From an uncultured Bacilli bacterium (GTDB lineage Bacteria; Bacillota_I; Bacilli_A; RF39; UBA660): 64,000 bases of DNA. The position numbers and the translations under genes were made by a program. The stretch is from positions 32,169-96,168 of the forward strand of contig CAKPDF010000004.1 in the NCBI GenBank assembly GCA_934148535.1, given 5' to 3'. The notes below the pieces were generated by a model. That model saw only the letters and a list, made by a program, of their open reading frames with translations, searched no databases and was not told where the DNA came from. Below are positions 8,451-51,173 of this stretch, in pieces. Every line of letters starts with the position of its first letter. Position 1 is the first letter of the stretch.

Positions 8451-9848
8451 ATGGCAGAGACTGAAGTGGTTCTAAGAGAAGCCTCAAGTTTAATGAGAAA
8501 AATAGTTGGGTATGAACAAGTATGTGAAAGAAGATTAAGTAATATAAACAATAATTTTGATACAACATCTGATAAAAGAGAAGAAAAATTAGAGACAAGA
8601 AAAGAGCTAAAATATTGGCAAAGCGTTCATCGAAAAATAGAAAGAGTAAGTGAAATTGCAGATATACATTTTGATGGTACAGAAGCAAAAAGACCAGAAT
8701 ATCCTCAAAAAATAGAAGTTTTAAATACTACTAAGATAATGATTTACTTAGAAAAAGCATTTTCTAAAAGTGGTCAAACAATGGATGCAGACCTAAAAAA
8801 ATTGGGAAAGATTATATCAGAAGAAGATAGAAATAGAGAAATGGGCAAAACGAAAAGAAAAATTCAAGATATAGAGCAAAGTAGAGATGAGCTTAAAACT
8901 CAAATGAAAGAACAACCAAGAGCCTTTTTCAAAAAGCCTTTATATTACCAAGAATGTATGGACTATATTGATAATATTTTAAAAGAAGTTCGTATTCCAA
9001 AAAGTACACATAGAGAATTTAATCCAGACGAACCAGTTAATGATGTTTCAACAATAACAGATTATGCAGGATTATTAGAAAGATATCAAACTTTAAAATT
9101 AGCAAATCGTCAATTAGAAGATATTGAATATCCGTTCATAACAAAAAGAATTACAGAATTACAAGATATCCAATATAAAAGGTCAGCAATTTCTATGGTG
9201 AAAATTTATTTAATGGATTTACCATATAAAAGTGATTATCAAGAAACCATCACCGAATTAAGAAATATTGATTTAAAATTAATACATCAACAGCAAAAAA
9301 TATTAGAAGAATTAAAAGAAAAAAGAATTATTACAACAATTACTAAAATAAAAATAGTAATAGATAAAGAAGAAAAAAGATTGAAGGAGAAAAGTGCAAT
9401 TGAACATGCAGTAGCTGACCTAGTAAGAAATTATAGTAAAAGTGCACTTATAAGAGTTCAAAAAGAACATAACCTTACAGATAGCCAATTATCTCAAGTA
9501 GAGTTAGCAGCAACTAGAATTATAAATGGAAAAGCACCACAACAACCAATTATACCAACAATTGCTACTCAACAGCAAGAAGCTAAGGAAGTAGTAAGTC
9601 CATCAATGAGTATTGAAGAAGAAGCTTTACTTAGAGCTAAAAAAAATGGATACATAGAAGTAGATAAAAAATTAAAAAATCTTTCAAAATTAGAAAGACA
9701 AATATTATATTCTTATGTTAGAGAAATTCAAACTGAAAACGAAGAAAAAAAGGAAGCTAGATTTAGCTCTATAAAACAAATATATGATCAAAAAGTGGAA
9801 GAGGAAAGGAAGCAAACTCATTCTTCATCAGTAGGAATGAGAAGATAA
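8451..9848 (+). CDS. Hypothetical 465-aa highly charged coiled-coil protein of unknown function
   Basis: Long ORF with RBS GAAGGGG 6 nt upstream of the ATG. No recognisable catalytic motifs. Confidence 0.5.
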   Translation: MAETEVVLREASSLMRKIVGYEQVCERRLSNINNNFDTTSDKREEKLETRKELKYWQSVHRKIERVSEIADIHFDGTEAKRPEYPQKIEVLNTTKIMIYLEKAFSKSGQTMDADLKKLGKIISEEDRNREMGKTKRKIQDIEQSRDELKTQMKEQPRAFFKKPLYYQECMDYIDNILKEVRIPKSTHREFNPDEPVNDVSTITDYAGLLERYQTLKLANRQLEDIEYPFITKRITELQDIQYKRSAISMVKIYLMDLPYKSDYQETITELRNIDLKLIHQQQKILEELKEKRIITTITKIKIVIDKEEKRLKEKSAIEHAVADLVRNYSKSALIRVQKEHNLTDSQLSQVELAATRIINGKAPQQPIIPTIATQQQEAKEVVSPSMSIEEEALLRAKKNGYIEVDKKLKNLSKLERQILYSYVREIQTENEEKKEARFSSIKQIYDQKVEEERKQTHSSSVGMRR

Positions 9849-10297: not shown

Positions 10298-12811
10298 ATG
10301 GAAGACATAATAAAAAGAATTTACGATTATTCACTAGAAGAAATAATGGGAGAAAGATTTGGAAAATATTCTAAATACATAATTCAAGATAGAGCAATCC
10401 CAGACGTAAGAGATGGATTAAAACCAGTACAAAGAAGAATATTATTCTCAATGTATAAAGAAAAAAACACTTATGATAAACCTTACAAGAAAAGTGCCCG
10501 TGCAGTAGGAGATGTTATGGGTAAATACCATCCTCACGGAGATAGCTCAATCTATGACGCAATAGTAAGAATGAGCCAAAGTTGGAAAATGAGAGAACCA
10601 TTTGTAGATATGCAAGGTAATAACGGATCAATAGATGGCGATTCAGCAGCAGCCTCACGTTATACAGAAACAAGATTATCAAAAATAGCAGGAGCAATGT
10701 TAAAAGATATAGACAAAGATACCGTAGTAATGGCACCAAACTATGATGATACTCTTCTAGAACCAACAGTCTTACCAGCAAAATTCCCAAACCTTTTAGT
10801 AAACGGAACAACAGGAATATCTGCAGGATATGCTACAAATATACCACCACATAATTTAGGAGAAGTTATAGATGCAACTATCTATAGAATAGAACATCCA
10901 GATTGTGAATTAGATAAAATAATGAAGTATATCAAAGGTCCAGATTTTCCAACCGGTGCTATCATAGAAGGAATAGATGGAATAAAATCAGCATATAAAA
11001 CCGGAAGAGGAAAAATAATTATCAAATCACGAGCAACAATAGAAAAAAATAAAATAATAATATCAGAAATCCCATATGAAGTAAATAAAGCTCAACTAGT
11101 AAAAAAAATAGATGAAATAAGAATAGATAAAAAAATAGATGGTATATCAGAAGTGAGAGATGAATCAGACAAAACAGGATTACAAATAGCAATAGATTTA
11201 AAAAAAGATGCAGATGCTACCAACATATTAAACTATTTATACAAAAATACTGAATTACAAATATCATATAACTTTAATATGATATCAATAGTAAATAGAA
11301 GACCAATGTTATTAGGAGTTATAGGAATATTAGATGCCTATATAGCCCATCAAAGAGAAGTAGTATTAAAAAGAACAAACTTTGATCTAGAACATGCTAA
11401 AGCAAGATACCACATAGTAGAAGGCTTAATAAAAGCAATATCAGTATTAGATGAAGTAATAAAGATAATTAGAGCAAGTAAGGATAGACAAGATTCAATA
11501 AATAATTTAATAAGTAGATTTGAATTTACCGAAGCCCAAGCAACTGCTATAGTAGACATGAGATTATATAGATTATCAAATACAGACATAGTAGCACTTC
11601 AAGAAGAAAAAGCTAACCTTGAAAAAATAATGGAAGTATTACAAAAAATATTAGAAAGCAAAGCCCAACTAGATAATGTAATAAAAGAAGAATTAAAACA
11701 AGTAAAAAAAGAATACGCAACTCCTAGATTATCAGAAATAAGAGAAGAAATAACAGAAATAAAAATAGATAATACAGTAATGCTACCAAAAGAAGACGTA
11801 GTAGTAGTAGTAACAAAAGAAGGATATGTAAAAAGAGTTTCACTTAGAAGCTATGAAAAATCAAATACTGATGATCTAACATTAAAAGAAAATGACTATG
11901 TAATAGGATTATATAATATGAATACCCTAGATACATTACTAGTATTTACAGATTTAGGAAATTATTTATATATTCCAGTACATGAATTACCTGACTTAAA
12001 ATGGAAAGACTTAGGAAAACATATAAGTAATATAATTAATATAGATTCAGAAGAAGTTGTAATAAATGCAATGCCAGTATATAACTTTGATGACGATATA
12101 TATGTAACATCATTCACTAAAAACGGAATGATAAAAAGAACATGGCTAAAAGAATTTAAAGTTCAAAGATATTCAAAAGCAATAAATATGATGAAATTAA
12201 AACCTGGCGATAAAGTAGTAGATGTATCTTGTAGTAAAGAAAAAAATATTTTAATAGCAACAACCAAAGGTTATGGTCTATGGTATGACGTAGAAGAAGT
12301 ATCACCAGTAGGAATTAAAGCAGCAGGAGTAAAATCAATAAACTTAAAAGATGATACAGTAGTAAGTGGAATTTTATTTAATGCAAACACTGAATATCTA
12401 TCAATAATAATGGATAAAGGAACTGCTAAAAGATTAAAATTATCTGAAATAGATAAATCATCAAGAGCAAATAGAGGATTACTACTAATGAAAGAAATAA
12501 AAAGTAATCCTAGTAAAATAATTAAAGTATATGCTTTACCAACAAAAAACGAAATAGTAGTAACAACTAAAAATTATGAAAAAGAATTAAAATTAAGTGA
12601 AATCCCAATAATGGATAGATATAGTAATGGTTCTTATATAGTTAAAGATAAAATAATTGACACTCATGAGTTGACTAAATTAACATCAAAAGAAGACTTG
12701 GAAAAAGAAGTAGAAGTAGAACCAGTAGTAGAAAAGCATCAAGAATCATTAAAAGAAATAGATGATAGAATGATGACAATAGATGATTTATTAAAAAATA
12801 TGGAAAATTAA
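10298..12811 (+). CDS. parC: DNA topoisomerase IV subunit A (GyrA/ParC family). The ORF track start at 10271 is probably an N-terminal over-extension.
   Basis: Near-colinear with B. subtilis ParC from [30 protein letters not shown] through the catalytic Tyr region and C-terminal domain. No GyrA-box QRRGGKG seen. RBS AAAGGTGA before the ATG at 10298. Confidence 0.8.
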   Translation: [837 protein letters not shown]

Positions 12812-12818
12812 AAATCAA

Positions 12819-12853
12819 GGATGTTTATAGCGTATTATAAACATTCTTTTTTA
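12819..12853 (+). terminator. Rho-independent terminator of parC
   Basis: Stem ATGTTTATA / TATAAACAT with loop GCGTAT, then TCTTTTTT. Confidence 0.65.
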
Positions 12854-12881
12854 AATAAAAATGTAAACAATATGTCAAGAT

Positions 12882-12910
12882 ATTGAGACAAATAATAAAA
12901 TATAGTATAA
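12882..12910 (+). promoter_or_regulatory. Sigma-A-type promoter for murF
   Basis: TTGAGA (12882-12887), 17-nt spacer, TATAAT (12905-12910). Confidence 0.55.
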
Positions 12911-12935
12911 TTTAAACAAAGAAAAGAGTGATAGA

Positions 12936-14309
12936 ATGCATAATATTTATGTAAAAGACTTATTAAAAATATGTAAATCAGAATTAATATCAGGTAATCC
13001 TGATATGATACTAGAGAATTTTTCCAAAGATACAAGGACAATAAAAGAAAATGATATATATATAGCTTTATCTGGAGAAAAAGTAGATGGTAACATTTAT
13101 GCAGAAGATGCTTTAAAAAAAGGAGCATCATGTTGCATACTAGATAATTTAGACTATATAGATACCCAAAAATATAAAGATAAAACAATAATTAAAGTAG
13201 ATAATACAATAGAATGCTTGCAAGAGTTAGCAAAATTAAAAAGAAGTAAGTACAATATTCCTGTAATAGCAGTTACTGGAAGTGTAGGAAAAACAAGCAC
13301 TAAAGACATAATAGCAGAAGTAGTAAAAGGAAAGTATAATACATTAAAAACAGAAGGCAATTTAAATAACCATATAGGATTACCCCTAACAATATTAAGA
13401 CTAAAAGACGAAGAAGCACTTGTAGTGGAAATGGGAATGAATCATAAAAATGAAATAAGTGTTCTTACTAAAATAGCAAAGCCAACAATTTCAGTAATTA
13501 CAAATATAGGCACAGCTCATATAGGAAATTTAGGATCAAGAGAAAATATATTAAAAGCAAAATTAGAAATATTAGAAGGAATGGAAAAACATTCAACATT
13601 AATAATAAATAATGATAATGACCTATTACATAAAGAATTACCAAAATTAGAAAAAGATTATAATGTAATAACCATAGGAATAAATAACAATTCAACATAC
13701 CTTGCTAAAAATATTAAAGAATATCCATTTAATAGTAAATTTCAAATTGAAAATAATGACATAGAAATCAATGTTGGTGGATTACCTTTTATATATAATA
13801 GCCTAATAGCATATGCCATTGGAAAGTGTTTAAATATTGATACTGATAAAATAAAAGATGCAATATATAATTTTAAACTATCTCCTCATCGCCAAGAATT
13901 AATAATAAATAAAACTGGTACTACCATTATAGATGATACTTATAATGCTAACATAGACTCAATGTTGACAGCAATAAAAATATTAGGTCAAGTAAAAAAT
14001 AAACGAAAAATAGCCTTATTAGCAGATATGCTAGAACTAGGAGATTATGAAGAAAAATTACATAGAAAAGTAGGAAAAGCAGTAACTGATAATAATATTG
14101 ATATATTAATAACAGTAGGTCCTCTTGCAAATAAATACATAAAAGCAGAAGCAATAAAAAACAACATGGATGAACACTGTATTTACAGCTTCAATAGTGC
14201 TAATGATTCAGTAGATTTTTTAAATAAACTATTAAAAAGTAATGATATAATCCTACTTAAAGGATCAAACTCTATGCATCTAACAAATATCGTAGAAAAA
14301 ATAAAATAA
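12936..14309 (+). CDS. murF: UDP-N-acetylmuramoyl-tripeptide--D-alanyl-D-alanine ligase
   Basis: Mur ligase ATP-binding motif VTGSVGKTSTKD. Central and C-terminal Mur ligase domains. Confidence 0.9.
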   Translation: MHNIYVKDLLKICKSELISGNPDMILENFSKDTRTIKENDIYIALSGEKVDGNIYAEDALKKGASCCILDNLDYIDTQKYKDKTIIKVDNTIECLQELAKLKRSKYNIPVIAVTGSVGKTSTKDIIAEVVKGKYNTLKTEGNLNNHIGLPLTILRLKDEEALVVEMGMNHKNEISVLTKIAKPTISVITNIGTAHIGNLGSRENILKAKLEILEGMEKHSTLIINNDNDLLHKELPKLEKDYNVITIGINNNSTYLAKNIKEYPFNSKFQIENNDIEINVGGLPFIYNSLIAYAIGKCLNIDTDKIKDAIYNFKLSPHRQELIINKTGTTIIDDTYNANIDSMLTAIKILGQVKNKRKIALLADMLELGDYEEKLHRKVGKAVTDNNIDILITVGPLANKYIKAEAIKNNMDEHCIYSFNSANDSVDFLNKLLKSNDIILLKGSNSMHLTNIVEKIK

Positions 14310-14338
14310 AGAGTGTAAACAATTCGCTCTTTTTTTGT
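14310..14338 (+). terminator. Rho-independent terminator of murF
   Basis: AGAGTG...CGCTCT stem (one G-U pair) followed by TTTTTTT. Confidence 0.6.
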
Positions 14339-14387
14339 CTATCTTAAAAATATTATGTTATAATAAAAATAGATTGGTGGTAATAGT

Positions 14388-15698
14388 ATGTTTAAACTAA
14401 AAAAGAATTCATCAGAAGAAAAAATAAAAAAATCCAAAGAAATAATTAAAGAGGAAAAAAGAAAAATTAAAGAAGAAAAGAAAAAAATAAAAAGCCACAC
14501 TAAAAAAAAGCCAAAAAAGCACATTGAAAAAGAAATATATACAAGTAAAGAAGTGGCAATTTCAATAGTAATATCGATGATACTAGGTGCTGTGATTTGT
14601 ATCAGTGCAGTATTATTAACGTTAAAACTAAATCACGTCTTAGACTCTTATAAAGATTTAAGTAAGTTAATAGAAACATATAAAACTATAACAAATAATT
14701 ATTATGGTGATATAGATAAAAAAGAATTAATAGATACCGCTACAAATGCAATGATGGAATCAGTTGGAGATAACTTTACAACTTATAGTAATTCTGAAAA
14801 AACAGAAAGCTTTCTAGAAGATGTAGAAGGTAGCTATGAAGGAATAGGATGCACAGTAACTACAACAGAAGAAGGCAAAATAAAAGTAGTAAGTATGTTT
14901 GATGATAGTCCCGCTAAAAAAGCAGGACTAAAAGAAAATGATATTATTTTGGCAATAGATGGAACAGATTACCAAGATAAGACCAGTAATGATGTAGCAG
15001 AATATGTAAAAAATAGTAAAAATAAAACCATAACTCTAAAAATAAAAAGAAATGACAAAGAAAAAGCAATTAAAATAACAAGAACAAAAATAGATATACC
15101 AGTAGTATCAAGCAATTTATATGAACAAGATAATCATAAAATCGGATATATATCAATATCAATTTTTTCTAAAACAGCAACCGAACAATTTAAAAATCAA
15201 CTAGAAAAACTAGAAAAAGAAAATATTGAAGGACTAGTAATAGATGTAAGAAATGATGGAGGAGGTTACCTATCATCAGTTACAGAAATCTCTAATATGT
15301 TTTTAGCCAAAGGAAAAGTAATATATAAATTAGAAAGTGAAAAAGAAAAAGAAGTAATAAAAGACAAAACTAAAGAAAAAAGAACCTATCCAATAGCAAT
15401 ATTAATAAATGAGGATAGTGCTTCTGCTTCTGAAATATTAGCATCCGCTATAAAAGAAAGTTACAATGGATTAGTAGTAGGAGTAAATTCTTACGGAAAA
15501 GGTACTGTTCAACAAACAAAACAACTAAAAGACGGGAGTATGATAAAATATACAACGCAAAAATGGTTAACACCAAATGGTAATTGGATAAATGAAACAG
15601 GTGTAGAACCAACAAATAAAATTGAGTTAGATACTAACGGAGAAAATGATAATCAATTGCAAGAAGCAATAAAACTAGTAGTTAAAAAATTAAACTAA
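14388..15698 (+). CDS. ctpA: Carboxyl-terminal processing protease (S41 family) with a Lys-rich N-terminus and a TM anchor
   Basis: PDZ segment (PAKKAGLKENDIILAIDG), S41 catalytic Ser context SASASEILA, and conserved Lys in LKYTTQKW. Confidence 0.8.
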   Translation: MFKLKKNSSEEKIKKSKEIIKEEKRKIKEEKKKIKSHTKKKPKKHIEKEIYTSKEVAISIVISMILGAVICISAVLLTLKLNHVLDSYKDLSKLIETYKTITNNYYGDIDKKELIDTATNAMMESVGDNFTTYSNSEKTESFLEDVEGSYEGIGCTVTTTEEGKIKVVSMFDDSPAKKAGLKENDIILAIDGTDYQDKTSNDVAEYVKNSKNKTITLKIKRNDKEKAIKITRTKIDIPVVSSNLYEQDNHKIGYISISIFSKTATEQFKNQLEKLEKENIEGLVIDVRNDGGGYLSSVTEISNMFLAKGKVIYKLESEKEKEVIKDKTKEKRTYPIAILINEDSASASEILASAIKESYNGLVVGVNSYGKGTVQQTKQLKDGSMIKYTTQKWLTPNGNWINETGVEPTNKIELDTNGENDNQLQEAIKLVVKKLN

Positions 15699-15819
15699 AG
15701 CAAAAATAAATAATCAGTCAAGGTAGAAAAAGTATCGTTTCCGACAAAATAAGACAATCCAATACATGATTATGATAGAATTTAGAAGTGCCATGCTAAA
15801 AAAGAAGGAGTGATATAGC

Positions 15820-16542
15820 ATGCTAAGATATATTATTTGTGAAGACAACTCAAACTTTCTTCAAAAAATTTCAGAAGTTGTCCATAAAACAATGATGAGT
15901 TATCAAATAAATTATAAAGTAAATAAATTTACTGGATTCAATAATGAATTAGAAGAACTTATAAAAGATAAAAATGATCACAAAGTTTATATACTTGATG
16001 TAGAAATTCCAGAAGTATCAGGATTAGAAATAGCATCAATGATTAGAACTAGAGATTCAGCAAGTACTATAATATTTTTAACTTCATATCCAGAGTATAA
16101 AAATGATGTGTTTTATTCAAGATTATTAGCATTAGACTACATTCAAAAAGGAGCGCTGTGGGTAGATAGACTAAGTGACACATTGCAATATGTGTTAAAA
16201 AGAATCGAAAAAGATAAATCTCTATCATTTAAGTACAATGGTAATGAGTATAGAGTAGAGTTAGGTGAAATAAATTATATTGAAAAAGTACAAGAGCATA
16301 AAAAGTGTAACATTCATACAAGAGACGGTAAAGTTTATCAAGTATCAACAACATTAAAAGAATTAGAAAAAGAGTTAGGCCCATTCTTTTATCAATGTCA
16401 TAAATCAGTTATAGTAAATATAAATAATATAAAACATATTGATTATCCTAATAACGCTATCACATTCAAAAATAATTCTAGAGAATATCTAATATCAAAT
16501 AGAAATAAGAAAGGATTGAAAGAATATGTTAAAAATCATTGA
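15820..16542 (+). CDS. agrA: LytTR-family response regulator (AgrA-like)
   Basis: N-terminal receiver domain (acidic pocket ...YILDVEIPEVSGLE), C-terminal LytTR DNA-binding domain. Translationally overlaps the downstream AgrC-like kinase. Confidence 0.8.
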   Translation: MLRYIICEDNSNFLQKISEVVHKTMMSYQINYKVNKFTGFNNELEELIKDKNDHKVYILDVEIPEVSGLEIASMIRTRDSASTIIFLTSYPEYKNDVFYSRLLALDYIQKGALWVDRLSDTLQYVLKRIEKDKSLSFKYNGNEYRVELGEINYIEKVQEHKKCNIHTRDGKVYQVSTTLKELEKELGPFFYQCHKSVIVNINNIKHIDYPNNAITFKNNSREYLISNRNKKGLKEYVKNH

Positions 16543-17815
16543 TTCATACTTTGGAATATTAATAATGATGTTTGGAATTATATGTTTTGCAAAGATAATA
16601 CTAAATGAGAAAATTAAAGTTTCAAAAATAAAGTTATCATTAGTAATACTAATTAGTTCTGTAGCCTATACTTTATTAACTTTGTACGCTGATGGTGTAG
16701 AGAAAACATTAATCATAGTTTTATTGAACATCATTACATTTATGTATCTATTTGAGATTGATTATTCAACATCAATAACACTAACATTATTATATATTAC
16801 ATTATTACTTATTCCAGAAATACTAGTACTCATCATACTTGAAATAGGAGTGAACATTCCAAAAACATTATTTTGTGGTGGAATAATTGGTAATACAATA
16901 ATATATATATTATTCTTACCCTTAGTTTATATTGCAAGAAAACAATTGAATAAATTTGTTAATTATAAAATAAATAAAAATGCAAAAATATTAATTTTTT
17001 CAATCTTAACTTTTGTATGTATTAGTGTAGTTTTTTATAATGCATTTATTAATATTAACCCTGGTATCAATTTAATAGTAAGTATATTCATGATAATAGT
17101 TTTTATATGCATTTTGTTAAATTTAATGAAAGAAATGATAAATAACAGCAAATTAATAAGAAAATATGAACAAATTTTAGAATTTATGACCACATATGAA
17201 GATGAAGTAGAAAAACAAAGAGTTCTAAGACATGAGACTAAAAATGCATTTTTAAGTATTAAAGCTCAATTAACAGATAAAACAGAAACTCAAGAGATAA
17301 TTAATTATATAGATAGTATTCTTGAAGATGATGTTAAAATTAAAAATGAAGAATATGCAAAATTTAAATATTTACCTGCTAATGGAATAAAAGGTCTATG
17401 TTATTATAAAATTCAAGAAGCAGAAAATAGAAATATTAAAGTTTCAATAAATATTTCATCAAGAATAAAAAAATCCAGTTTATCTAAGCTATCAGTAAAA
17501 GAAATAAAAGAGTTGGGTAAAATATTAGGTGTTTATCTAGATAATGCAATTGAGGCAAGTGTAAAATCTGAAGATAAAAAACTAGGATTTGAAGCATATT
17601 TAATAGATAACAAAGTAAAAATAATAATTTCAAATACATATAAAGGTGAACTTTCAAAAGAAAAAATTGGAAATGAAATATATTCAACAAAAGGTAAAAA
17701 TAGAGGGCATGGATTATTATTGGTAAAAGAAATAGTAAGTAATAATAAAATGTTTAATATTGATACTGAAATAACAGATAGTTTATATATACAAAGTTTA
17801 ACAATAGAAAAATAG
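16526..17815 (+). CDS. agrC: AgrC-like (HPK10 family) membrane sensor histidine kinase
   Basis: About 6 N-terminal TM helices, H-box RHETKNAF, C-terminal GHKL ATPase G-box KGKNRGHGLLLVKEIV. Confidence 0.8.
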   Translation: MLKIIDSYFGILIMMFGIICFAKIILNEKIKVSKIKLSLVILISSVAYTLLTLYADGVEKTLIIVLLNIITFMYLFEIDYSTSITLTLLYITLLLIPEILVLIILEIGVNIPKTLFCGGIIGNTIIYILFLPLVYIARKQLNKFVNYKINKNAKILIFSILTFVCISVVFYNAFININPGINLIVSIFMIIVFICILLNLMKEMINNSKLIRKYEQILEFMTTYEDEVEKQRVLRHETKNAFLSIKAQLTDKTETQEIINYIDSILEDDVKIKNEEYAKFKYLPANGIKGLCYYKIQEAENRNIKVSINISSRIKKSSLSKLSVKEIKELGKILGVYLDNAIEASVKSEDKKLGFEAYLIDNKVKIIISNTYKGELSKEKIGNEIYSTKGKNRGHGLLLVKEIVSNNKMFNIDTEITDSLYIQSLTIEK

Positions 17816-18035
17816 TATATTTAATTTAGGAGTTTAATAATATAATATTAATATATTGAAAATATAAGAGAATAAAAAATCAAGGATAATGTTTTTAATT
17901 TAATTTAAAGCCTTGTTTTTTTATTATGCGTTATGATTAATGTATAATGAATTAGAAAAATATGCATACCTAAATAACATTATCATAAACACATTTAGAA
18001 AAATTTGTTATGGTAATTATATTTTTTGTAATAAT

Positions 18036-18070
18036 ATATATAAAAACAAGGCCTATTTTTATTGCCTTGT
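18036..18070 (-). terminator. Rho-independent terminator of agrB-agrD (minus strand)
   Basis: On the minus strand: stem ACAAGGC / GCCTTGT with an 11-nt loop, then TTTTTATATA. Lies immediately 3' of the agrD stop. Confidence 0.65.
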
Positions 18071-18086
18071 CCTTAAAGTCTATTAA

Positions 18087-18209
18087 TTATTTTTCTATTA
18101 AACTTTTTGGCATTCTAGGTTCATCAACTATCCAAATAAAGCATCCTTGTGTACCTGCACTAGCAGCAGCACCTCCTATTTTTGCTAAAATATCAGCAAT
18201 AAATTTCAT
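18087..18209 (-). CDS. agrD: AgrD autoinducing-peptide precursor, 40 aa. Not in the ORF track because it is under the 60-aa cutoff.
   Basis: Minus-strand ATG at 18209 with RBS AGGAAGGAGAG 7 nt upstream. Translation is MKFIADILAKIGGAAASAGTQGCFIWIVDEPRMPKSLIEK. It has an amphipathic leader, a single Cys followed by hydrophobic residues, then a DEP...PK acidic/Pro tail like staphylococcal AgrD (YSTCDFIMDEVEVPKEL). Lies 40 bp downstream of agrB. Confidence 0.8.
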   Translation of the reverse strand: MKFIADILAKIGGAAASAGTQGCFIWIVDEPRMPKSLIEK

Positions 18210-18249
18210 ATTATATCTCTCCTTCCTATTCTATATATGTTTAAATAAA

Positions 18250-18855
18250 TTAAACACCGCAATTATATTTTTTGTAGTTATCATATGGCAAGCTAAATAT
18301 CTTATAAACAAACGGATGAATCATTAATATGGCTTCCACTAAACCACATAACAAATATCCACTGACAATATTATCTTTAAAATAAATAATTAATATTAAA
18401 TAAATTATGCCCTTTATACAACTTTTAATTTTAAGAATCCTTCTCTTTTTTGCATTAATAAGAGGCCTTTTAACTGTGTCAGCAGGAGCATACTTTAAAA
18501 GTAAAATGATTGATATCGTACATAGTACTATTTTTATCACTAATGGGATTGTAGCAATGTATTTACTCAAATAAACCCCACCGATAAATAAAGTAATTGA
18601 TGAAATCAAACAATAAATACTTTTACTAGCATGAAGTCCATATGCTGTCGATCTAATCAAATTATAACATAGTAGCAACAGCACTACTTCTTTTAAGATT
18701 CCTAGCAAATATGCAAGACCAAATATTACAATTAATTTTGTCACGGTCAAATACAAAGTTTCAAGTCCATAAGAGATTTCTTCTAATCTTATATCATCAA
18801 AATCATAGTTAGAAGCAATGATATTAACTGAATAATTTAAAAATTTTTTTTTCAT
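18250..18855 (-). CDS. agrB: AgrB accessory gene regulator B (AgrD-processing membrane peptidase), 201 aa. True start 18855, not 18915.
   Basis: Membrane protein with the AgrB catalytic region IRSTAYGLHASKSIYCLISS (R...G.HA...C..S) and APADTVKRP motif. RBS AAGGAGAGAGAA immediately upstream of the ATG at 18855. The 20-codon extension in the ORF track has no RBS. Confidence 0.85.
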   Translation of the reverse strand: MKKKFLNYSVNIIASNYDFDDIRLEEISYGLETLYLTVTKLIVIFGLAYLLGILKEVVLLLLCYNLIRSTAYGLHASKSIYCLISSITLFIGGVYLSKYIATIPLVIKIVLCTISIILLLKYAPADTVKRPLINAKKRRILKIKSCIKGIIYLILIIYFKDNIVSGYLLCGLVEAILMIHPFVYKIFSLPYDNYKKYNCGV

Positions 18856-18873
18856 TTCTCTCTCCTTGTCATA

Positions 18874-18905
18874 ATTATAAGTCATAACATTACTGATGAA
18901 ACTTA
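18874..18905 (-). promoter_or_regulatory. Candidate agrBD promoter
   Basis: On the minus strand, TATAAT (complement of 18874-18879) about 20 nt upstream of the RBS. The -35 is weak (TTTCAT-like). Confidence 0.35.
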
Positions 18906-19196
18906 AAGAAATCAATAAACAAAAAGTAATTTATAACAATAAAAACATAAACACTTAATTAATAAAAATATCTAAAATAACGGAAAAAAAGAAAAAAAAT
19001 TAGTTCTTAAATTAAAGTAAGATGTAGCAAACAAAAAATGATAACTATATGTATACAACATTTCATTTAAAGAATAAAAATATTTATAATATAAAAAATG
19101 AAAGAACTAAAATATATTGTTGTAATTAATTATATAAAGTTCACTTTTCATAAAAAGAAAAAAGTGATATAATATTATCACCAAGAGGAGGTTTTT

Positions 19197-19961
19197 ATGA
19201 AATTACAAATTAAAAATTTAACAGTAGAAGTAGAAGAAAAAATAGTATTAAAAGATTTTAACCTAGAAATAAAAGAAGGAGAAATTCACACTATAATGGG
19301 ACCAAACGGTGTAGGTAAATCTACATTATCACGTGTAATAATGGGAGATCCTAATTATAAAGTTTTAAATGGCGATATATTATTTGAAGGAAAAAGCATA
19401 ATAAATTTAAAAACCGATGAAAGAAGCAGATTAGGAATATTTTTAGCAATGCAAAATCCAACCGAAATAGAAGGAGTAAGCAATCAAGACTTTTTAAGGA
19501 CAGCAATATCTGCTAAAAAACAAGAAAGAATAGGTCTATATGAATTTATAATAAAATGTGAAAAATGTACTGAAGAACTAAAGATGAATAAAGATTTAAT
19601 TCACAGATCATTAAACGTTGGATTTTCAGGAGGAGAAAAAAAGAAAAATGAAGTTCTTCAAATTAAATTATTAAATCCATCATTTATAATATTAGATGAA
19701 TTAGATTCTGGATTAGATGTAGACAGTTTAAAAATAGTTTGTAAGAACTTGAAAGAATATTTGAAAGAAAATCCAGAAACATCTGTAATAATAATAACCC
19801 ACTATAATATGATATTAAATTACTTAACACCTGATTATGTCCATATATTAAGTAATCACAAAATAGTTAAAACAGGAAATTATGATTTAGCAAAGGATAT
19901 TGAAAAAAATGGTTATAATAAATATATAAATGTCATAAACGAGGAAAATAAAGATGAATAG
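19197..19961 (+). CDS. sufC: Fe-S cluster assembly ATPase SufC
   Basis: Walker A MGPNGVGKSTL, ABC signature FSGGEKKKNE, Walker B ILDELDSGLD. Preceded by an extended -10 TGATATAAT. Confidence 0.9.
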   Translation: MKLQIKNLTVEVEEKIVLKDFNLEIKEGEIHTIMGPNGVGKSTLSRVIMGDPNYKVLNGDILFEGKSIINLKTDERSRLGIFLAMQNPTEIEGVSNQDFLRTAISAKKQERIGLYEFIIKCEKCTEELKMNKDLIHRSLNVGFSGGEKKKNEVLQIKLLNPSFIILDELDSGLDVDSLKIVCKNLKEYLKENPETSVIIITHYNMILNYLTPDYVHILSNHKIVKTGNYDLAKDIEKNGYNKYINVINEENKDE

Positions 19962-20715
19962 AATACTAGTAGAAAAAGATAAAATAAAAAACTATAAAGA
20001 CTCCAATGTTGAAATATTAAATGACACTATATTTTTTAAAAAATCAGGAGAGTATACAATAGAGTACATTGATTGTAAAAATGTAACACTTAATATTAAT
20101 GTAGATGAAAATGTGATGATTAAAATCTTCGAATATGCAGATAGTCAATCATTAAATATAAATAATATATACAATCAAAATAAATATAGTAACCTATTAT
20201 TATTTAAGTTTTATAATAACAAAGAAGTAAAAGAAGAAATAACATTTAACTTAAATGGTGAATATTCAAAAGTAGATTATCATTTTTCAAATATTTGTAG
20301 CAATTTAGAACAATATCATATTGTAATTAATCATAATGCATCAAATACAGAAAGCTTAATAAATAACAAATCAATAACCATAGAGGAATCTGATTTATCA
20401 TTCACAATAGATAGTGTTCTACCAAAAGGTAATAAGGAATGTAATTTAGACCAACAAACTAGAATAATAACACTAGATGATAGTAATGCTAAAATAGAAC
20501 CAAATATGTTTATAGAAGAAAATGATGTATCAGCAAAACATGGATCAGTTATTGGTAAATTTAGAGAAGAAGAGTTATTTTATCTTTTAGCAAGAGGAAT
20601 TCCAGAACAAGAAGCAATAAAGTTATTAATAAAAGGATATATATTTTCTAATTTATTAGTAGATTTAGATAAAAGAGCAAAAATATTTAATATAATTAAT
20701 GAAAAATGGAGGTGA
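19954..20715 (+). CDS. sufD: SufD-like Fe-S assembly protein (SufB/SufD C-terminal domain; N-terminally shorter than Bacillus SufD)
   Basis: C-terminal SufBD domain (HGSVIGKFREEELFYLLARGIPEQEAIKLLIKGYI). Overlaps the sufC stop. Confidence 0.7.
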   Translation: MNRILVEKDKIKNYKDSNVEILNDTIFFKKSGEYTIEYIDCKNVTLNINVDENVMIKIFEYADSQSLNINNIYNQNKYSNLLLFKFYNNKEVKEEITFNLNGEYSKVDYHFSNICSNLEQYHIVINHNASNTESLINNKSITIEESDLSFTIDSVLPKGNKECNLDQQTRIITLDDSNAKIEPNMFIEENDVSAKHGSVIGKFREEELFYLLARGIPEQEAIKLLIKGYIFSNLLVDLDKRAKIFNIINEKWR

Positions 20716-20719
20716 AAAA

Positions 20720-21919
20720 ATGAATAGAGAAGACTTTCCAATGTTAAATAAAAATGAAGTAATATATTTTGACAATGGAGCCACAACCTTAAAACCTCAA
20801 CCAGTAATAGATGCTGTTGTAGATTACTATACAAATTATACAGCTAATGCCCATAGAGGAGATTACAAAAATAGTTTAAAAGTTGATGACAATTATGAAG
20901 GAGTAAGAAAAAAAGTAAAAGAATTCATAAATGCCAAAGAAACAAGTGAAATTGCTTTTACCTCAGGAACAACTGACAGCATGAATTTAATAGCATTTGG
21001 TTATTTCAAAAACATCTTACAAAAAGATGACGAAGTGCTAATAACAGAAAGTGAACACGCATCAAATATCTTGCCTTGGTTTATCCTAGCAAAAGAAATT
21101 GGAATAAAAGTAAAATATATACCACTTAGCAAAAAAAATGAAGTAATAATTGAAAATGTAGAAAAAGCAATTACTCCCAAAACAAAAGTAATATCTTTAG
21201 CACAAATTACAAATGTAATAGGAGATATAAGACCAATACAAGAAATATCATCTATAGCACATAAAAAAAATATTTATGTAGTAGTTGATGCTGCTCAAAG
21301 TATAGCCCATACTAAAGTAGATGTGCAAAAGTTAGATATTGATTTTCTAGCATTCTCAGCTCACAAAATATATGGCCCAACTGGAGTTGGCGTAATTTAT
21401 GGAAAATTTAATTTTTTAGATAAGTTAATTCCAAGAAATTATGGTGGTGGAATGAATGCAACATTTACAACAGATGGATATTTAGAATTAAGAGAAATAC
21501 CAGTAAGACTAGAAGCAGGCACTCCAAATATAGCAGGTGTAATAGGATTAGGAGCAGCAATCGACTATGTAAATAATATTGGTATTGATAATATCAAAGA
21601 GTATGAACATATGTTAAAAAGATATTTAGTATCAAAACTAAAACAATTAGATTTTATAGAAATATATAATGAATTTAATTCTGGTAGCATTGTAGCATTT
21701 AATATAAAAAATGTTTTTAGCCAAGATACAGCAGTTTATTTAGACAAATATAATATTTGTGTAAGAGCAGGTAATCATTGCGCTAAAATATTAAATAACG
21801 TATTTAATGTAAACAATACCTGCAGAATAAGTTTAAGTTTTTATAACACTAAAGAAGAAATTGATAAACTAATAGAAGTATTGAAAAATAGTGGAAATAT
21901 TTGGAATGAAATATTATAA
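20720..21919 (+). CDS. sufS: Cysteine desulfurase SufS. The ORF track start at 20699 is probably an over-extension.
   Basis: PLP-lysine motif SAHKIYGPTGVGVIYGK and catalytic Cys in NHCAKIL. RBS GGAGGTGA before the ATG at 20720. Confidence 0.85.
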   Translation: MNREDFPMLNKNEVIYFDNGATTLKPQPVIDAVVDYYTNYTANAHRGDYKNSLKVDDNYEGVRKKVKEFINAKETSEIAFTSGTTDSMNLIAFGYFKNILQKDDEVLITESEHASNILPWFILAKEIGIKVKYIPLSKKNEVIIENVEKAITPKTKVISLAQITNVIGDIRPIQEISSIAHKKNIYVVVDAAQSIAHTKVDVQKLDIDFLAFSAHKIYGPTGVGVIYGKFNFLDKLIPRNYGGGMNATFTTDGYLELREIPVRLEAGTPNIAGVIGLGAAIDYVNNIGIDNIKEYEHMLKRYLVSKLKQLDFIEIYNEFNSGSIVAFNIKNVFSQDTAVYLDKYNICVRAGNHCAKILNNVFNVNNTCRISLSFYNTKEEIDKLIEVLKNSGNIWNEIL

Positions 21920-21931
21920 GAAGGTGTAAAT

Positions 21932-22366
21932 ATGGATAGCAATTTAAAAAGAAGCATAATATTAGATAATTATCAAAATCCAGTAAATAGAAGAAAAGAA
22001 GATAATAATCCTAGCTATGAAAAATTAAATACAAGAAACGTATCTTGTATTGATAATATAGATTTATACATAAAAATAAAGGATAATATTATAGAAGATA
22101 TATCATTTGATGGAGAAGCGTGCGCAATAAGTATATCCTCAACATCTATTATGACAAATATTTTAAAGGGCAAGAAAGTAGAAGATGCAATAAAAATAAT
22201 AGAAGAATATGAAAAAATGATAGATGAAAAAGAATATGACAAAGATTTAATAAAAGAAGCAATAGTATATGAAGATATTTCTAAACAACCAGCAAGAATT
22301 AAGTGCGCCACACTCACATGGAATGGACTATATAAAAAGTTAAAAGAAATAGAAGAAAAAAAATAA
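21932..22366 (+). CDS. sufU: SufU/IscU-like Fe-S scaffold/sulfurtransferase
   Basis: NifU-like N-terminal domain with conserved Cys residues (CID..., GEACAISISS..., KCATLTW). Confidence 0.8.
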   Translation: MDSNLKRSIILDNYQNPVNRRKEDNNPSYEKLNTRNVSCIDNIDLYIKIKDNIIEDISFDGEACAISISSTSIMTNILKGKKVEDAIKIIEEYEKMIDEKEYDKDLIKEAIVYEDISKQPARIKCATLTWNGLYKKLKEIEEKK

Positions 22367-22407
22367 TCTTCTATTTTTAATTTTATCTAAAAAAAAGCAA
22401 AAATATA

Positions 22408-22416
22408 TGTTATAAT
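22408..22416 (+). promoter_or_regulatory. Extended -10 promoter element for the HipA-like gene
   Basis: TGTTATAAT (TGnTATAAT) 20 nt upstream of the RBS GGAAGTGA. Confidence 0.4.
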
Positions 22417-22436
22417 TATAATAGGAAGTGATCTAA

Positions 22437-23654
22437 ATGAATATAGAATCATTAATTAAAGAAATAGCAAATAATTATAATCTAACTAAAGAAGAAGAAA
22501 CTAAAATGTTAGAAATGTATAAAAATGATACAAGAAATCAAGTATCATTAGAAGTAGAACTAAATTCCTTAGCAGATTATTATAATTGGCAAAACAAAGT
22601 AGCAACAGCAATTAAAAATGCTCCACCACTACAACAAAACCAAAACTATTATATAAGAACATATGATGATAAAAGTAATATAATTCTTCAAGGAGTAAAT
22701 ATAGAAAAAATATCAGATACTGCCAGTGGTATTAATCAAGTAGAAAAAGTATTAATTGATAATAAGTATAGAGCATATAAAAAAGTAGATAGAGTTGATG
22801 TAGCTGATAATGACATGGAAATAGCAATTTGTCAAATAGGAAATTTATTAAATGTAAGTGGTGCCGAAGAATATACTGTATATAATTCTAATAAAGAAAA
22901 AGATTCTATAATAAGTAGAAGTGTAGCAGATTCAGAGTACGAAGAATTCTATGATTTTACAAGTTTGTACATTAAAGTAGATAAATATATAAAAGAAGGA
23001 AAAATAAAAAATTCTAAAGTATCTGAATATAGTGATTTCAAATTTAATAATAGCAAAGAAGATTATATAAAAGTGATAGAAAAAAGTATACAAATAATAA
23101 GATCATTACCAATGATAAGTCAAAAAGATATAAGAAGTATAAAAGCATCATATTTTGACATGATTATATTTGGTTATATTACAAATCAAGTAGACAGAAA
23201 TCTAAATAATTATGGGCTAATATGCAATAAAAAGACAAAAGAATATAGATTTGCTCCATTATTTGATAATAGCATTATATTGTTACCAAATCTAGAAGAA
23301 AATCAATGTAGTTTTAATGGATACATATGCAATAGAAATAAATTAATAGATTGTTTATTTGAAAATTATTATGAAGATATAAAAGAAAAAGTAACATATA
23401 TAATAAATAATAAAACAAGACTAATTCAGATAATCGATATAATAGCCAAACAAAATCTTGACATAAAAAGTTACAATCTATTAATGGAAAAAATAATAAA
23501 AAACATTTCTTACATAGAAGAAAAATATCTAGAAAAAAATAATATTATAGCACCAGAAAATGCTGGTTATGTTAATATATTAAATATGTTTATAATCTTA
23601 ACCTTAATAGCAACCATATCGATATCAATAGCATGTTTCTTATTAAGAAGGTAA
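22437..23654 (+). CDS. HipA-like Ser/Thr kinase-domain protein with a C-terminal transmembrane helix
   Basis: Segment FDMIIFGYITNQVDRNLNNYGLICNKKTKEYRFAPLFDNS matches the HipA_C core (G-N-x-D-x-H-L-K-N-F-S-L... L-A-P-x-Y-D). The last ~25 residues are hydrophobic. Confidence 0.5.
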   Translation: MNIESLIKEIANNYNLTKEEETKMLEMYKNDTRNQVSLEVELNSLADYYNWQNKVATAIKNAPPLQQNQNYYIRTYDDKSNIILQGVNIEKISDTASGINQVEKVLIDNKYRAYKKVDRVDVADNDMEIAICQIGNLLNVSGAEEYTVYNSNKEKDSIISRSVADSEYEEFYDFTSLYIKVDKYIKEGKIKNSKVSEYSDFKFNNSKEDYIKVIEKSIQIIRSLPMISQKDIRSIKASYFDMIIFGYITNQVDRNLNNYGLICNKKTKEYRFAPLFDNSIILLPNLEENQCSFNGYICNRNKLIDCLFENYYEDIKEKVTYIINNKTRLIQIIDIIAKQNLDIKSYNLLMEKIIKNISYIEEKYLEKNNIIAPENAGYVNILNMFIILTLIATISISIACFLLRR

Positions 23655-23659
23655 AAGAA

Positions 23660-23700
23660 AAGAATTTATAGTTATTTATATAAATTCTCTTTTTTTTTCT
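23660..23700 (+). terminator. Rho-independent terminator of the HipA-like gene
   Basis: 10-bp stem AGAATTTATA / TATAAATTCT, then CTTTTTTTTT. Confidence 0.7.
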
Positions 23701-23739
23701 AAAAATTTAGTTTATAATAATAAAGAAAAAGGTGATCTT

Positions 23740-25050
23740 ATGAAATTAACAGAACAGGTAGTAAAAGAAATATCAAATATAAAACAAGAACCAAAATGGA
23801 TGACAGATTTTAGAGTAAACTCATATAAATCATTCATTAAACATAAAGAGCCAAATTTTGGACCAAAGTTAAATATAGATTATGACAGTATAACATACTA
23901 CAAAAAAAGAGAGCAAGAGTTAACAAATAATTGGAATAACGTAAATTGTAAGGTAAGAGATTTATTTGATGACTTAGGTGTAATAAAAGCAGAAAAAAAT
24001 TATTTAGATGGAATAGGAGCTCAATATGATAGTGAAGTAATATATCACAATATGATAAAAGAATTAGAAGAAAAAAATGTAATATTTATGGATACTGATT
24101 CCGCATTAAAATACCATGAAAACATATTTAAAAAATACTTTAATAAACTTGTAAAATACGATGAAAATAAATTTACAGCTTTAAATGGAGCCGTTTGGAG
24201 TGGGGGTACATTTATATATATTCCACCCCATACCAAACTAGATAGACCATTACAAAGTTATTTTAGGATAAATAGCAAAAATATGGGCCAGTTTGAAAGA
24301 ACATTAATAATAGTAGATGACGATAGTGAACTTCATTACATAGAAGGATGTACTGCCCCAACATATACGGAAGATGCATTGCATGCTGCAGTAGTAGAAA
24401 TATATGTAGGCAAAAATTCTAAATGTCGATACACAACAATCCAAAATTGGTCAAGTGATGTATACAATCTAGTTACTAAAAGAGCAATAGTAGAAGAAAA
24501 TGGACTAATGGAATGGATAGACGGAAATGTAGGAGCAAAAAACAATATGAAATATCCAGCCTGCATATTAAAAGGAAAATATGCAAGAGGAAGTTGTATA
24601 ACAGTAGCCTCAGCATCAGCAGGTCAAATTCAAGATACAGGAGCAAAAATGATTCATTTAGCCCCATATACAAAAAGTAACATTGTTTCTAAATCTATAG
24701 CATCTAATGGAGGAAATGCAACCTACAGAGGACTAGTTAAAATAGCAAAAGAGGCCCATCATTCAAGCGCAAGTGTAAAATGTGATACAATAATACTAGA
24801 TGAAAAATCAAAAAGTGATACAGTACCAACAAATATAGTAAATAATAAAACATCATTTTTAGAACATGAAGCTACAGTATCTAAAATAAGTGAAGATAAA
24901 TTATTCTATTTAACAAGCAGAGGAATAGATGAAGATACAGCCAAAGAATTAATAATCTTAGGATTTGTTAATGAATTTAGAGAAGAACTGCCTATGGAAT
25001 ATGCTGTAGAATTAAATAGATTATTATCTTTAAATATAAATTCAGACTAA
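23740..25050 (+). CDS. sufB: Fe-S cluster assembly protein SufB
   Basis: SufB-type C-terminal domain (MIHLAPYTKSN..., ...EDKLFYLTSRGIDEDTAKELIILGF). Length 436 aa. Confidence 0.85.
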   Translation: MKLTEQVVKEISNIKQEPKWMTDFRVNSYKSFIKHKEPNFGPKLNIDYDSITYYKKREQELTNNWNNVNCKVRDLFDDLGVIKAEKNYLDGIGAQYDSEVIYHNMIKELEEKNVIFMDTDSALKYHENIFKKYFNKLVKYDENKFTALNGAVWSGGTFIYIPPHTKLDRPLQSYFRINSKNMGQFERTLIIVDDDSELHYIEGCTAPTYTEDALHAAVVEIYVGKNSKCRYTTIQNWSSDVYNLVTKRAIVEENGLMEWIDGNVGAKNNMKYPACILKGKYARGSCITVASASAGQIQDTGAKMIHLAPYTKSNIVSKSIASNGGNATYRGLVKIAKEAHHSSASVKCDTIILDEKSKSDTVPTNIVNNKTSFLEHEATVSKISEDKLFYLTSRGIDEDTAKELIILGFVNEFREELPMEYAVELNRLLSLNINSD

Positions 25051-31809: not shown

Positions 31810-32511
31810 ATGATTAATATGAAAAAAATAATTAACTTAACAACATATTTATTTATAATAATTGTAATTGCTTTTATAGCGGCATATTTTCTTGCCAAAA
31901 ACTATAGTAATAAAATATCAAAAGCTCTATATTCATATTCAGAATCTGAATCAAAAAAAATAATTACCGAGATTATAAATTTATCTCTAACAGAAGAATT
32001 AGAAAATGATGATTATAATACTACACTATATAATATAGTAAAAAACGATAAAGATGAAATACAATTAATAGATTTTAATACTACAAAAGTAAACAAAATA
32101 CTATCAAATCTCACTAATAATATAGAAAATAAAATTAAAAATATGGAAAGTAGTCAAATATTAGAAGAAGATGAAATAATGAGTGTCCATAATGGACTTA
32201 TCTTTAATATGCCTATAGGAGCAGTTACAGGAAATGTATTTTTATCTAATATAGGTACTAAAATTCCAGTAAAAATCTCACTAATGGGCAGTGTAATAAG
32301 TAAAATGGATACTAGTATAACAGAATATGGATTAAATAATGCTTTAATAAAAATAGGAATACTAGTAACAGTAAACACTAAAACTACAGCCCCCTTTACC
32401 TCAAAAGAGTTTACAGTAACTAATACTATACCTATCTCAATAAAAGTAATCCAAGGAAGTGTACCAGAATATTATTTAAACAGTTTAAATGATAATAAAA
32501 ATAATAATTAG
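31810..32511 (+). CDS. YunB-like sporulation protein (signal-anchored)
   Basis: N-terminal TM helix. C-terminal region NMPIGAVTGNVFLSNIGTKIPVKI resembles the YunB family core. Confidence 0.45.
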   Translation: MINMKKIINLTTYLFIIIVIAFIAAYFLAKNYSNKISKALYSYSESESKKIITEIINLSLTEELENDDYNTTLYNIVKNDKDEIQLIDFNTTKVNKILSNLTNNIENKIKNMESSQILEEDEIMSVHNGLIFNMPIGAVTGNVFLSNIGTKIPVKISLMGSVISKMDTSITEYGLNNALIKIGILVTVNTKTTAPFTSKEFTVTNTIPISIKVIQGSVPEYYLNSLNDNKNNN

Positions 32512-50819: not shown

Positions 50820-50895
50820 TGGTGTCCCGTATGAGATTTGAACTCATGACCCTTTGATTAAAAGTCAAATGCTCTACCGGCTGAGCTAACGGAAC
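50820..50895 (-). tRNA. tRNA-Lys (anticodon TTT), CCA encoded
   Basis: Hand-folded cloverleaf. Anticodon loop CTTTTAA. 7-bp acceptor stem. Terminal CCA encoded. Confidence 0.85.
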
Positions 50896-50902
50896 ATAGA
50901 TA

Positions 50903-50977
50903 TGGTTGCCTCGGCTAGACTCGAACTAGCGAATGCCACAGTCAAAGTGTGGTGCCTTACCGCTTGGCTACGAGGCA
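50903..50977 (-). tRNA. tRNA-Gln (anticodon TTG), CCA encoded
   Basis: Anticodon loop CTTTGAC. T-arm GCTAG-TTCGAGT-CTAGC. Acceptor TGCCTCG/CGAGGCA. Confidence 0.8.
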
Positions 50978-50999
50978 ATTACCGTTGGAACAAATAAAG

Positions 51000-51083
51000 T
51001 GGTGGAAGGAGATGGATTCGAACCATCGAACCCGAAGGAACAGATTTACAGTCTGCCGCGTTTAGCCACTTCGCTACCCTTCC
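51000..51083 (-). tRNA. tRNA-Tyr (anticodon GTA), long variable arm, CCA encoded
   Basis: Anticodon loop CTGTAAA. 84-85 nt with an extra arm, as for bacterial tRNA-Tyr. Confidence 0.8.
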
Positions 51084-51090
51084 AAAAAAA

Positions 51091-51167
<77 letters not shown>

Positions 51168-51173
51168 AAAAAA

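Follow-up and report, generated by a model that had tools for sequence, protein, structure and literature searches.

The 64,000-nucleotide (nt) stretch analyzed here (the window; part of contig CAKPDF010000004.1, assembly GCA_934148535.1, from an uncultured Bacilli bacterium) carries a gene of the AgrB family and, directly downstream on the same minus strand, a reading frame of only 40 codons. The question raised by this locus is whether the short frame encodes AgrD, the precursor of an autoinducing peptide (AIP), whether the genes around it make up a complete signaling system, and which signal such a system would release. We conclude, with a probability of about 90%, that the window encodes a complete agr-type peptide quorum-sensing module in which two operons converge, agrB-agrD (minus strand) and an agrA-like/agrC-like pair (plus strand). 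This reading is supported by family hidden Markov models (HMMs), gene context, conservation of catalytic residues and conservation across species. The locus itself is a standard and already automatically annotated agr-type module, and one more of these is not news. What goes beyond a first-pass annotation made earlier from the sequence is that multiple pherotypes of this module occur in one species between flanking genes whose proteins are 96-100% identical.

Gene content and conservation of the locus

The agrD frame opens with an ATG at 18209, ends with a stop codon at 18089-18087 and, by direct translation, encodes MKFIADILAKIGGAAASAGTQGCFIWIVDEPRMPKSLIEK. It follows the agrB stop codon (TAA, 18252-18250) after exactly 40 nt on the same strand and has a strong ribosome-binding site, all as the first-pass annotation had described. 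The precursor consists of an amphipathic leader (residues 1-22, MKFIADILAKIG), Cys23, a variable core (residues 24-28, FIWIV) and a follower (residues 29-40, DEPRMPKSLIEK), and so has the features of precursors of 40-50 amino acids (aa), i.e., an amphipathic leader, a hydrophobic core with a Cys, and a charged, Pro-containing follower. A six-frame motif search of the window gave no second AgrD-like peptide. The gene had been presented as hidden, which is true only of an open reading frame (ORF) track with a 60-aa limit. Public gene callers report the exact 40-aa peptide on 72 contigs from human gut metagenomes (e.g., the Hadza cohort), and the search index places it in 86 blocks of the collection. 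An allele at least 90% identical bears the public name ‘cyclic lactone autoinducer peptide,’ and the adjoining proteins are named AgrB and AgrA.

AgrB contains several hydrophobic segments and matches Pfam PF04647 with E = 4.6e-34 and 117.8 bits (cut-off 23), residues 9-178 aligning to positions 4-181 of the 185 in the model. It carries the motifs RSTAYGLHASKSIYCLISS and YAPADTVKRP; the previously reported PADT.KRP motif and the presence of the catalytic motif were thus recovered, while the residue spacing given for the latter was only approximate. In an alignment with 31 relatives, His75, Cys82 (seven residues apart) and the APADT motif are invariant. The pair aligns at the same spacing with His77 and Cys84, the catalytic residues of Staphylococcus aureus AgrB. 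A PDB sequence search with AgrB returned no solved AgrB structure and only chance matches to ribosomal protein eL6. The longest agrB frame opens with a TTG at 18915, and the ATG at 18855 has an AAGGAG 6 nt upstream. The 201-aa protein starting there occurs verbatim in public gene calls, where the 221-aa form is absent (some Joint Genome Institute calls are 211 aa long). Based on both observations, 18855 is the true start, as had been proposed.

The two plus-strand genes, which overlap by 17 nt, converge on agrBD. The kinase comprises a polytopic sensor (residues ∼1-205, with six to seven hydrophobic segments in residues 1-201), His236 in the sequence RHETKN, and a C-terminal GHKL domain. It matches Pfam HATPase_c_5 (E = 1.4e-11) and aligns over its full length (residues 18-424) with the NCBIfam AgrC model (E = 1.8e-21), with a score far under the equivalog cut-off, which a distant relative would be expected to give. 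The regulator matches Pfam LytTR (E = 3.1e-20), Response_reg (E = 1.3e-9) and the NCBIfam AgrA model (E = 8.9e-21). With family matches for the AgrB, AgrC-like and AgrA-like proteins and a conserved convergent layout, the earlier proposal that agrD completes an agr locus holds.

This layout could be followed in other genomes. An AgrB scan of species-representative genomes identified 30 related loci with AgrB proteins 29-67% identical to that of the window, all in metagenome-assembled genomes (MAGs) from gut or rumen titled Erysipelotrichaceae, Bacilli, Clostridia, etc. A co-oriented ORF of 38-54 aa lies directly 3′ of agrB in all 30 loci, and the convergent kinase/regulator pair is present in 28, the other two running off contig ends. 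A clade of MAGs from gut Firmicutes has kept the convergent four-gene layout with its small ORF. The related small ORFs encode a leader, usually G-T-Q-G-C, five variable hydrophobic residues and then DEPKMPKSLIEK or a close variant, so that the three-part architecture claimed before (leader, Cys-x5, DEPxMPxSL) recurs in 30 out of 30 loci. When 35 AgrD relatives are aligned, conservation reaches at least 90% at Cys23, Glu30, and Pro31 and is complete at Pro34, with variation in the five residues after the Cys; leader and follower are kept at the protein level even though the DNA diverges. A peptide search against 1.84 billion representatives gave 32 matches, about 25 of which are AgrD-like clusters of 38-64 aa with a nucleophile-x5-DEP geometry. 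Seven of the 32 are long repetitive proteins resembling the Ala/Gly-rich leader, which were rejected as low-complexity matches.

Short ORFs readily arise by chance, and the HMM scores of the single window peptide lie below curated cut-offs. The 40-codon frame might accordingly have arisen by chance or be a spacer that is not translated, leaving an orphan agrB beside an unrelated two-component system. We consider this extremely improbable, given the same intact architecture in all 30 related loci and all sampled alleles, the conservation of leader and follower proteins despite divergent DNA, the strong ribosome-binding site at the correct spacing, and a core that co-varies with the sensor of the adjacent kinase (see below). 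The competing ORF on the opposite strand (18010-18327, plus strand), which overlaps agrD, also argues against it: this ORF has no Pfam match, and stop codons interrupt it in four alleles of the same species (L046, L037, L038, and L043), in all of which the agrD frame remains open; it is therefore spurious, in agreement with the first reading. As judged from sequence and conservation, the 40-codon frame is a genuine AgrD precursor gene.

A terminator had also been predicted 3′ of agrD, and folding of positions 18095-18020 agrees with this. The predicted hairpin has a 7-bp stem (ACAAGGC/GCCUUGU) with an A-U pair extension, followed by a U-tract; its free energy is −15.5 kcal/mol (z = −4.2), and none of 200 shuffled sequences was equally stable. 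A consensus terminator scan of the region reported no terminator, because its loop limit is 8 nt and the hairpin loop has 11 nt.

By analogy with established agr biochemistry, the amphipathic leader would bring the 40-aa AgrD to the membrane, where AgrB (His75/Cys82) would cut off the 12-residue follower and Cys23 would form a thiolactone with the new C-terminus. A second protease would then take off the leader, with release of the cyclic peptide. The latter presumably binds the polytopic sensor of the kinase, leading to phosphorylation at His236 and then at Asp60 of the LytTR regulator, which would activate the agr and target promoters. From what is known of the family, we infer that the system is autoinduced.

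Several results weigh against the agr reading. The window AgrD stays below both curated cut-offs, with 18.1 versus 22.7 bits for Pfam AgrD PF05931 (E = 0.0027) and 17.7 bits for NCBIfam TIGR04223 (cut-off 19, E = 0.0031); of the two HMM checks that had been suggested, the one for AgrB gave a match above the cut-off and the one for AgrD a match under it. In addition, an exact-seed search found no direct repeats in the promoter regions upstream of agrB and agrA. Imperfect 10-mer repeats with 19-23-nt spacing were searched upstream of agrB in 28 loci, which yielded 15 pairs against 9.6 in shuffled sequences and none in the window. The window copy of an element that precedes agrB in related loci is degenerate, with only GTTTA at −97 and GTTAT at −82, and the 11-nt-spaced motif derived from these relatives (GTTWW-N6-GTTWA) has no match in the window where 4.3 are expected by chance. 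Finally, an Rfam scan of the whole window found tRNAs only, with no RNAIII or other regulatory RNA (and no rRNA).

Regarding the scores, TIGR04223 matches 34 out of 35 subfamily AgrD peptides (E ≤ 1, best E 2.2e-7) and Pfam AgrD matches 19 out of 35 (best E 1.8e-4). The TIGR04223 result makes membership of the AgrD family secure at the subfamily level, the sub-threshold window allele notwithstanding. Clostridial and listerial agr systems likewise have no RNAIII (PMC12312760).

The upstream element was found in 11 out of 16 related loci (L001, L003, L007, L009, L010, L012-L016, and L022), ∼122-92 nt 5′ of the agrB start, and reads TGTAAACG-N7-T[AT]GTTAT-N5-[AT]GTTAA. Its GTTA[AT] units lie at −108 and −97 from the agrB ATG in these 11 loci, with a background of 0.015 per position. 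The element core AGTTAA resembles the S. aureus AgrA box, with a spacing of 11 nt rather than 21 nt. Another allele, L040, contains three copies of GGTTTAC, spaced 21 and 19 nt. Since the 11-nt-spaced motif has no match in the window, no AgrA operator is named there, and the region listed in Table 1 is a low-confidence candidate placed by the positions in relatives. The TATAAT box at 18879-18874 is retained by alleles of the same species. The best sigma-70-like match of the region (TTGCCA-18-TATAAT, 11 out of 12 positions) lies elsewhere, at 18291-18262 on the minus strand, inside the 3′ end of agrB and just 5′ of agrD. This promoter-like site could give rise to a transcript of agrD alone; overall, shuffled sequences have at least as many promoter-like matches.

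Table 1. Features of the agr-type locus, in window coordinates.
Feature	Position	Strand	Basis or remark
AgrA-like response regulator, 240 aa	15820..16542	+	receiver (Asp60) and LytTR DNA-binding domain
Hypervariable island 1	16510..17210	+	sensor-coding part of the kinase gene; 55-87% nt identity to L046
AgrC-like sensor histidine kinase, 429 aa	16526..17815	+	HATPase_c_5, AgrC model alignment
Hypervariable island 2	17810..18150		convergent intergenic region and 3′ half of agrD (core-coding); 67-86% nt identity to L046
Terminator-like hairpin and U-tract ending the predicted agrBD transcript	∼18041..18075	-	RNA folding
agrD, 40-aa autoinducing-peptide precursor	18087..18209	-	translation, HMM and context
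agrD ribosome-binding site AGGAAGGAGAG	18217..18227	-	read from sequence; AAGGAG core 9 nt 5′ of the ATG
agrB, predicted 201-aa membrane peptidase/cyclase	18250..18855	-	His75 and Cys82; Pfam AgrB match
agrB ribosome-binding site AAGGAG	18862..18867	-	from sequence; 6 nt 5′ of the ATG at 18855
Candidate degenerate LytTR/AgrA operator region upstream of agrB	18920..18965	-	low confidence; GTTA[AT] positions of relatives

The predicted mature signal

The first-pass annotation proposed a five-membered thiolactone ring C-F-I-W-I with a short exocyclic tail such as TQG. This is probably not the best guess. Five residues, not four, separate Cys23 from the DEP follower (C-FIWIV-DEPRMPKSL), and a six-membered, tail-less ring C-F-I-W-I-V is in our view the likeliest product, favored with some confidence by analogy with a characterized AIP. 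In S. aureus ([CSSLF], follower DEPKVP) and Listeria ([CFMFV], follower YEP), the ring ends directly before a [D/Y]E(P) follower, and the same rule gives six residues here. The closest match is the precursor of Clostridium acetobutylicum, ...GKCVLVTLYEPKMPEELL, in which CVLVTL is followed by YEPKMP (PMC10301443, Fig. S1). Its AIP is given as [CVLVTL] (PMC12312760), again a ring that stops directly before the follower, and the synthetic six-membered, tail-less R6T0 is active (PMC10301443). The identical arrangement of a Cys, five residues, and [D/Y]EP[K/R]MP in both precursors favors CFIWIV over a CFIWI ring carrying a TQG tail. The calculated [M+H]+ of cyclized CFIWIV is 762.40, and the corrected prediction thus gives an exact mass to look for.

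The same locus and mechanism might still yield the five-membered C-F-I-W-I thiolactone with a short tail (e.g., TQG), Val28 then belonging to the follower. Five is by far the commonest ring size of AIPs (PMC12312760, Table 1), and positions +3 and +4 after the Cys are always bulky and hydrophobic in the subfamily, matching the two ring-final residues of known AIPs, while +5 is sometimes Ala, Ser, or Cys, a pattern that a five-membered ring would fit as well. Within the species, moreover, Ile at +4 is invariant. Position +5, on the other hand, is as variable within the species (V/I/C/M) as +1 to +3, which is how specificity positions behave, and the residues GTQG before the Cys are invariant, whereas the exocyclic tails of AIPs in staphylococci vary. 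Together with the rule for where the ring ends, this leaves the five-membered product rather unlikely, and the six-membered ring preferred.

For this preferred ring, a T-x-(G/A) sequence just before the Cys is conserved across the AgrD subfamily, which is compatible with a small −3/−1 site and a leader cut right at the Cys. Homodetic cyclopeptides can form by rearrangement of tail-less thiolactones whose Cys amine is free (PMC8251862). The CFIWIV thiolactone could likewise convert by an S→N acyl shift to a head-to-tail cyclopeptide of the same mass, provided that its own Cys amine is free.

The Trp in the ring had been called unfamiliar among characterized AIPs. This does not stand, as C. perfringens [CLWFT], C. 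difficile ANST[CPWII], and Lactiplantibacillus plantarum [CVGIW] all contain Trp (PMC12312760, a primer from 2025), and Trp is frequent in the cores of the AgrD subfamily to which the window peptide belongs.

Some members of the subfamily have no Cys. The AgrD of locus L025 (5654-5770; ...STFTWFWFSDEP) has a Thr at the Cys position, though the L025 AgrB retains the His/Cys pair. Among further proteins of the subfamily, P0058 has a Ser (GTQASWFWFVDEP), P0068 a Thr (GTQATFIWITDEP), and P0062 a Gly at this position. Variants with Ser or Thr could yield lactone AIPs, a Thr nucleophile being unusual. The most distant loci (L027:5607-5771, L028:5709-5828, and L030:4895-5014) have another follower, HQPKMPASLIKKD, after the Cys and six residues. 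Their cores are CIIWGMF, CFFSGLI, and CVLLGIW, which would form seven-membered rings if cleavage falls directly before HQP.

Core and sensor variation within the species

AgrD peptides at least 75% identical to that of the window (the 90% cluster and its nearest neighbors) contain 13 distinct cores between a nearly invariant leader and follower: CFIWIV, CWIWIV, CFLWIV, CFMLIC, CFVLIC, CWLLIV, CWLLIM, CWILII, CYVLII, CYVFIV, CYILIM, CYFLII, and CLFLIM. We compared contigs of five AgrD alleles, all of which have the same ctpB-like/murF genes on one side and the same suf genes on the other, with flanking proteins 96-100% identical to those of the window. The kinase sensor domains follow the cores. 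Alleles with the same core have sensor domains 98-100% identical, the pair CFVLIC and CFMLIC 93%, the pair CYVLII and CYVFIV 69%, and all other core pairs only 40-51%. Within one backbone (window, L034, L046, L040, and L041), by comparison, the catalytic half of the kinase is 94-98% identical. AgrD core and kinase sensor co-vary as discrete alleles within one species, a pherotype polymorphism like that of S. aureus. Such co-variation on near-identical flanks is the pattern that defines the S. aureus agr specificity groups (PMC12312760).

At the nucleotide level, the window and L046 are 98-100% identical outside two hypervariable islands (Table 1). The region between the kinase gene and agrD (17816-18086) is hypervariable in sequence, and its length differs between alleles from 139 to 290 nt. 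In the window it contains a 48-aa low-complexity plus-strand ORF (17940-18086) and, after the kinase gene, a weak hairpin followed by U7 (∼17879-17925). A second, deeper agr backbone is found in L037, L038, and L043, with 74% identity to the window in the catalytic half of the kinase, 74% in AgrB and 70% in the regulator. The flanking proteins of these three loci are nevertheless 96-99% identical to those of the window. Flank relatedness also disagrees with backbone relatedness for L040 and L041, whose flanks group with L037, L038, and L043 and not with the window. This mismatch implies recombination or long-lived polymorphism.

Such diversity can also be read differently. The AgrBD product might mainly be an interference or antimicrobial RiPP (a ribosomal peptide with post-translational modifications), directed against competitors, with core diversity resulting from an arms race with its targets. 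Antagonistic traits typically show extreme allelic diversity, non-cognate AIPs competitively inhibit other AgrC variants (PMC12312760), and synthetic gut AIPs inhibit biofilms of pathogens (PMC11953309). However, 28 out of 30 loci have a physically linked cognate kinase/regulator pair, no immunity or export genes are present at the agr locus, and the one-to-one co-variation of sensor and core is a signature of self-recognition. We therefore judge a mainly antagonistic role improbable and keep to that of a signal with a cognate receptor.

Taken further, the data tentatively suggest a wider picture, to which we give slightly less than even odds. This human gut Firmicute (∼24% G+C) may maintain an unusually large number of pherotypes, with at least 13 core hexapeptides, each with a matching sensor allele, preserved by diversifying or balancing selection and reshuffled through recombination. 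Its signals would be six-membered, tail-less and possibly homodetic, and strains might discriminate kin by AIP dialects that can be read from metagenomes. Near-identical strains of an uncultured gut species that differ almost solely in AIP core and receptor sensor domain form a natural experiment, by which specificity rules for six-membered AIPs become testable. The pattern suggests strain-level signaling dialects in gut commensals, beyond the staphylococci.

Genomic setting and relation to known systems

The part of the window around the locus (12000-24000) has a G+C content of only 21-28% and a strong positive GC skew. Nearly all genes in it are on the plus strand, agrBD being among the few minus-strand units. 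A CtpB-like S41 protease (PDZ, Peptidase_S41, and CtpB_N-like domains) is encoded at 14388-15698 on the plus strand, directly 5′ of the agrA-like gene, and this synteny recurs in about 17 related loci. At 31810-32511 (plus strand), a YunB sporulation protein is encoded. The organism is probably a spore-former. In several clostridia, agr controls sporulation.

Two further plus-strand genes encode proteins with no Pfam match: a 405-aa protein with a C-terminal hydrophobic segment (22437-23654), located between sufU and sufB in the suf run, and a highly charged 465-aa protein (8451-9848) 5′ of a gyrA/parC-like gene. The window also contains two clusters of five tRNA genes each on the minus strand, at 50823-51250 and 62799-63227.

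AIP clusters have already been mined at scale from genomes of the human microbiome (PMC11953309). A full-text literature search for the follower (EPKMPKSL/DEPKMP) found no paper, and no mention of agr in Erysipelotrichaceae was found in the literature searched.

Among characterized systems, the agr locus of C. acetobutylicum shares with the window separate agrBD and agrCA transcription units, the lack of RNAIII, and a Cys followed by five residues and [D/Y]EP[K/R]MPxxL (CVLVTL-YEPKMPEEL versus CFIWIV-DEPRMPKSL). Both also come from Firmicutes, and sporulation genes (YunB, CtpB-like) lie in the window. The two units are co-oriented in C. acetobutylicum, whereas they are convergent in the window, and the AgrD leader is ∼36 residues long as opposed to 22. 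C. acetobutylicum also has the LanM-like CA_C0082, of which no homologue lies adjacent to the window locus (its neighbors are ctpB-like/murF and suf genes). Many alleles within one species, as found here, distinguish the window species from C. acetobutylicum.

The S. aureus agrBDCA locus (groups I-IV) consists of the same four families, with the same seven-residue His/Cys spacing in AgrB and a three-part AgrD with an acidic, Pro-containing follower. AIP core and AgrC sensor co-vary there as well, on nearly identical flanks. In contrast to the window locus, it forms one operon and has a divergent RNAIII, and its AIPs have five-membered rings with variable tails of two to four residues. The hypervariable block of S. 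aureus is contiguous and takes in part of AgrB, whereas the window species has two islands, split by the convergent layout, and an AgrB that varies little inside a backbone (four of the five compared pherotypes share 94-98% identity). S. aureus has four groups, the window species at least 13 cores.

C. perfringens [CLWFT], C. difficile ANST[CPWII], and L. plantarum LamD [CVGIW] resemble the predicted product in having hydrophobic cores with a Trp in the macrocycle. They differ in their five-membered rings and other followers (HQPEEP in C. perfringens), and C. perfringens has no linked agrCA. The cyclic AIP of Ruminiclostridium cellulolyticum is homodetic and arises by an S→N acyl shift; a tail-less CFIWIV thiolactone could rearrange likewise if cut before Cys23. 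Its sequence is unrelated to the window AgrD beyond family membership. The closest characterized relative is thus C. acetobutylicum with respect to precursor geometry and operon split, and S. aureus with respect to population structure.

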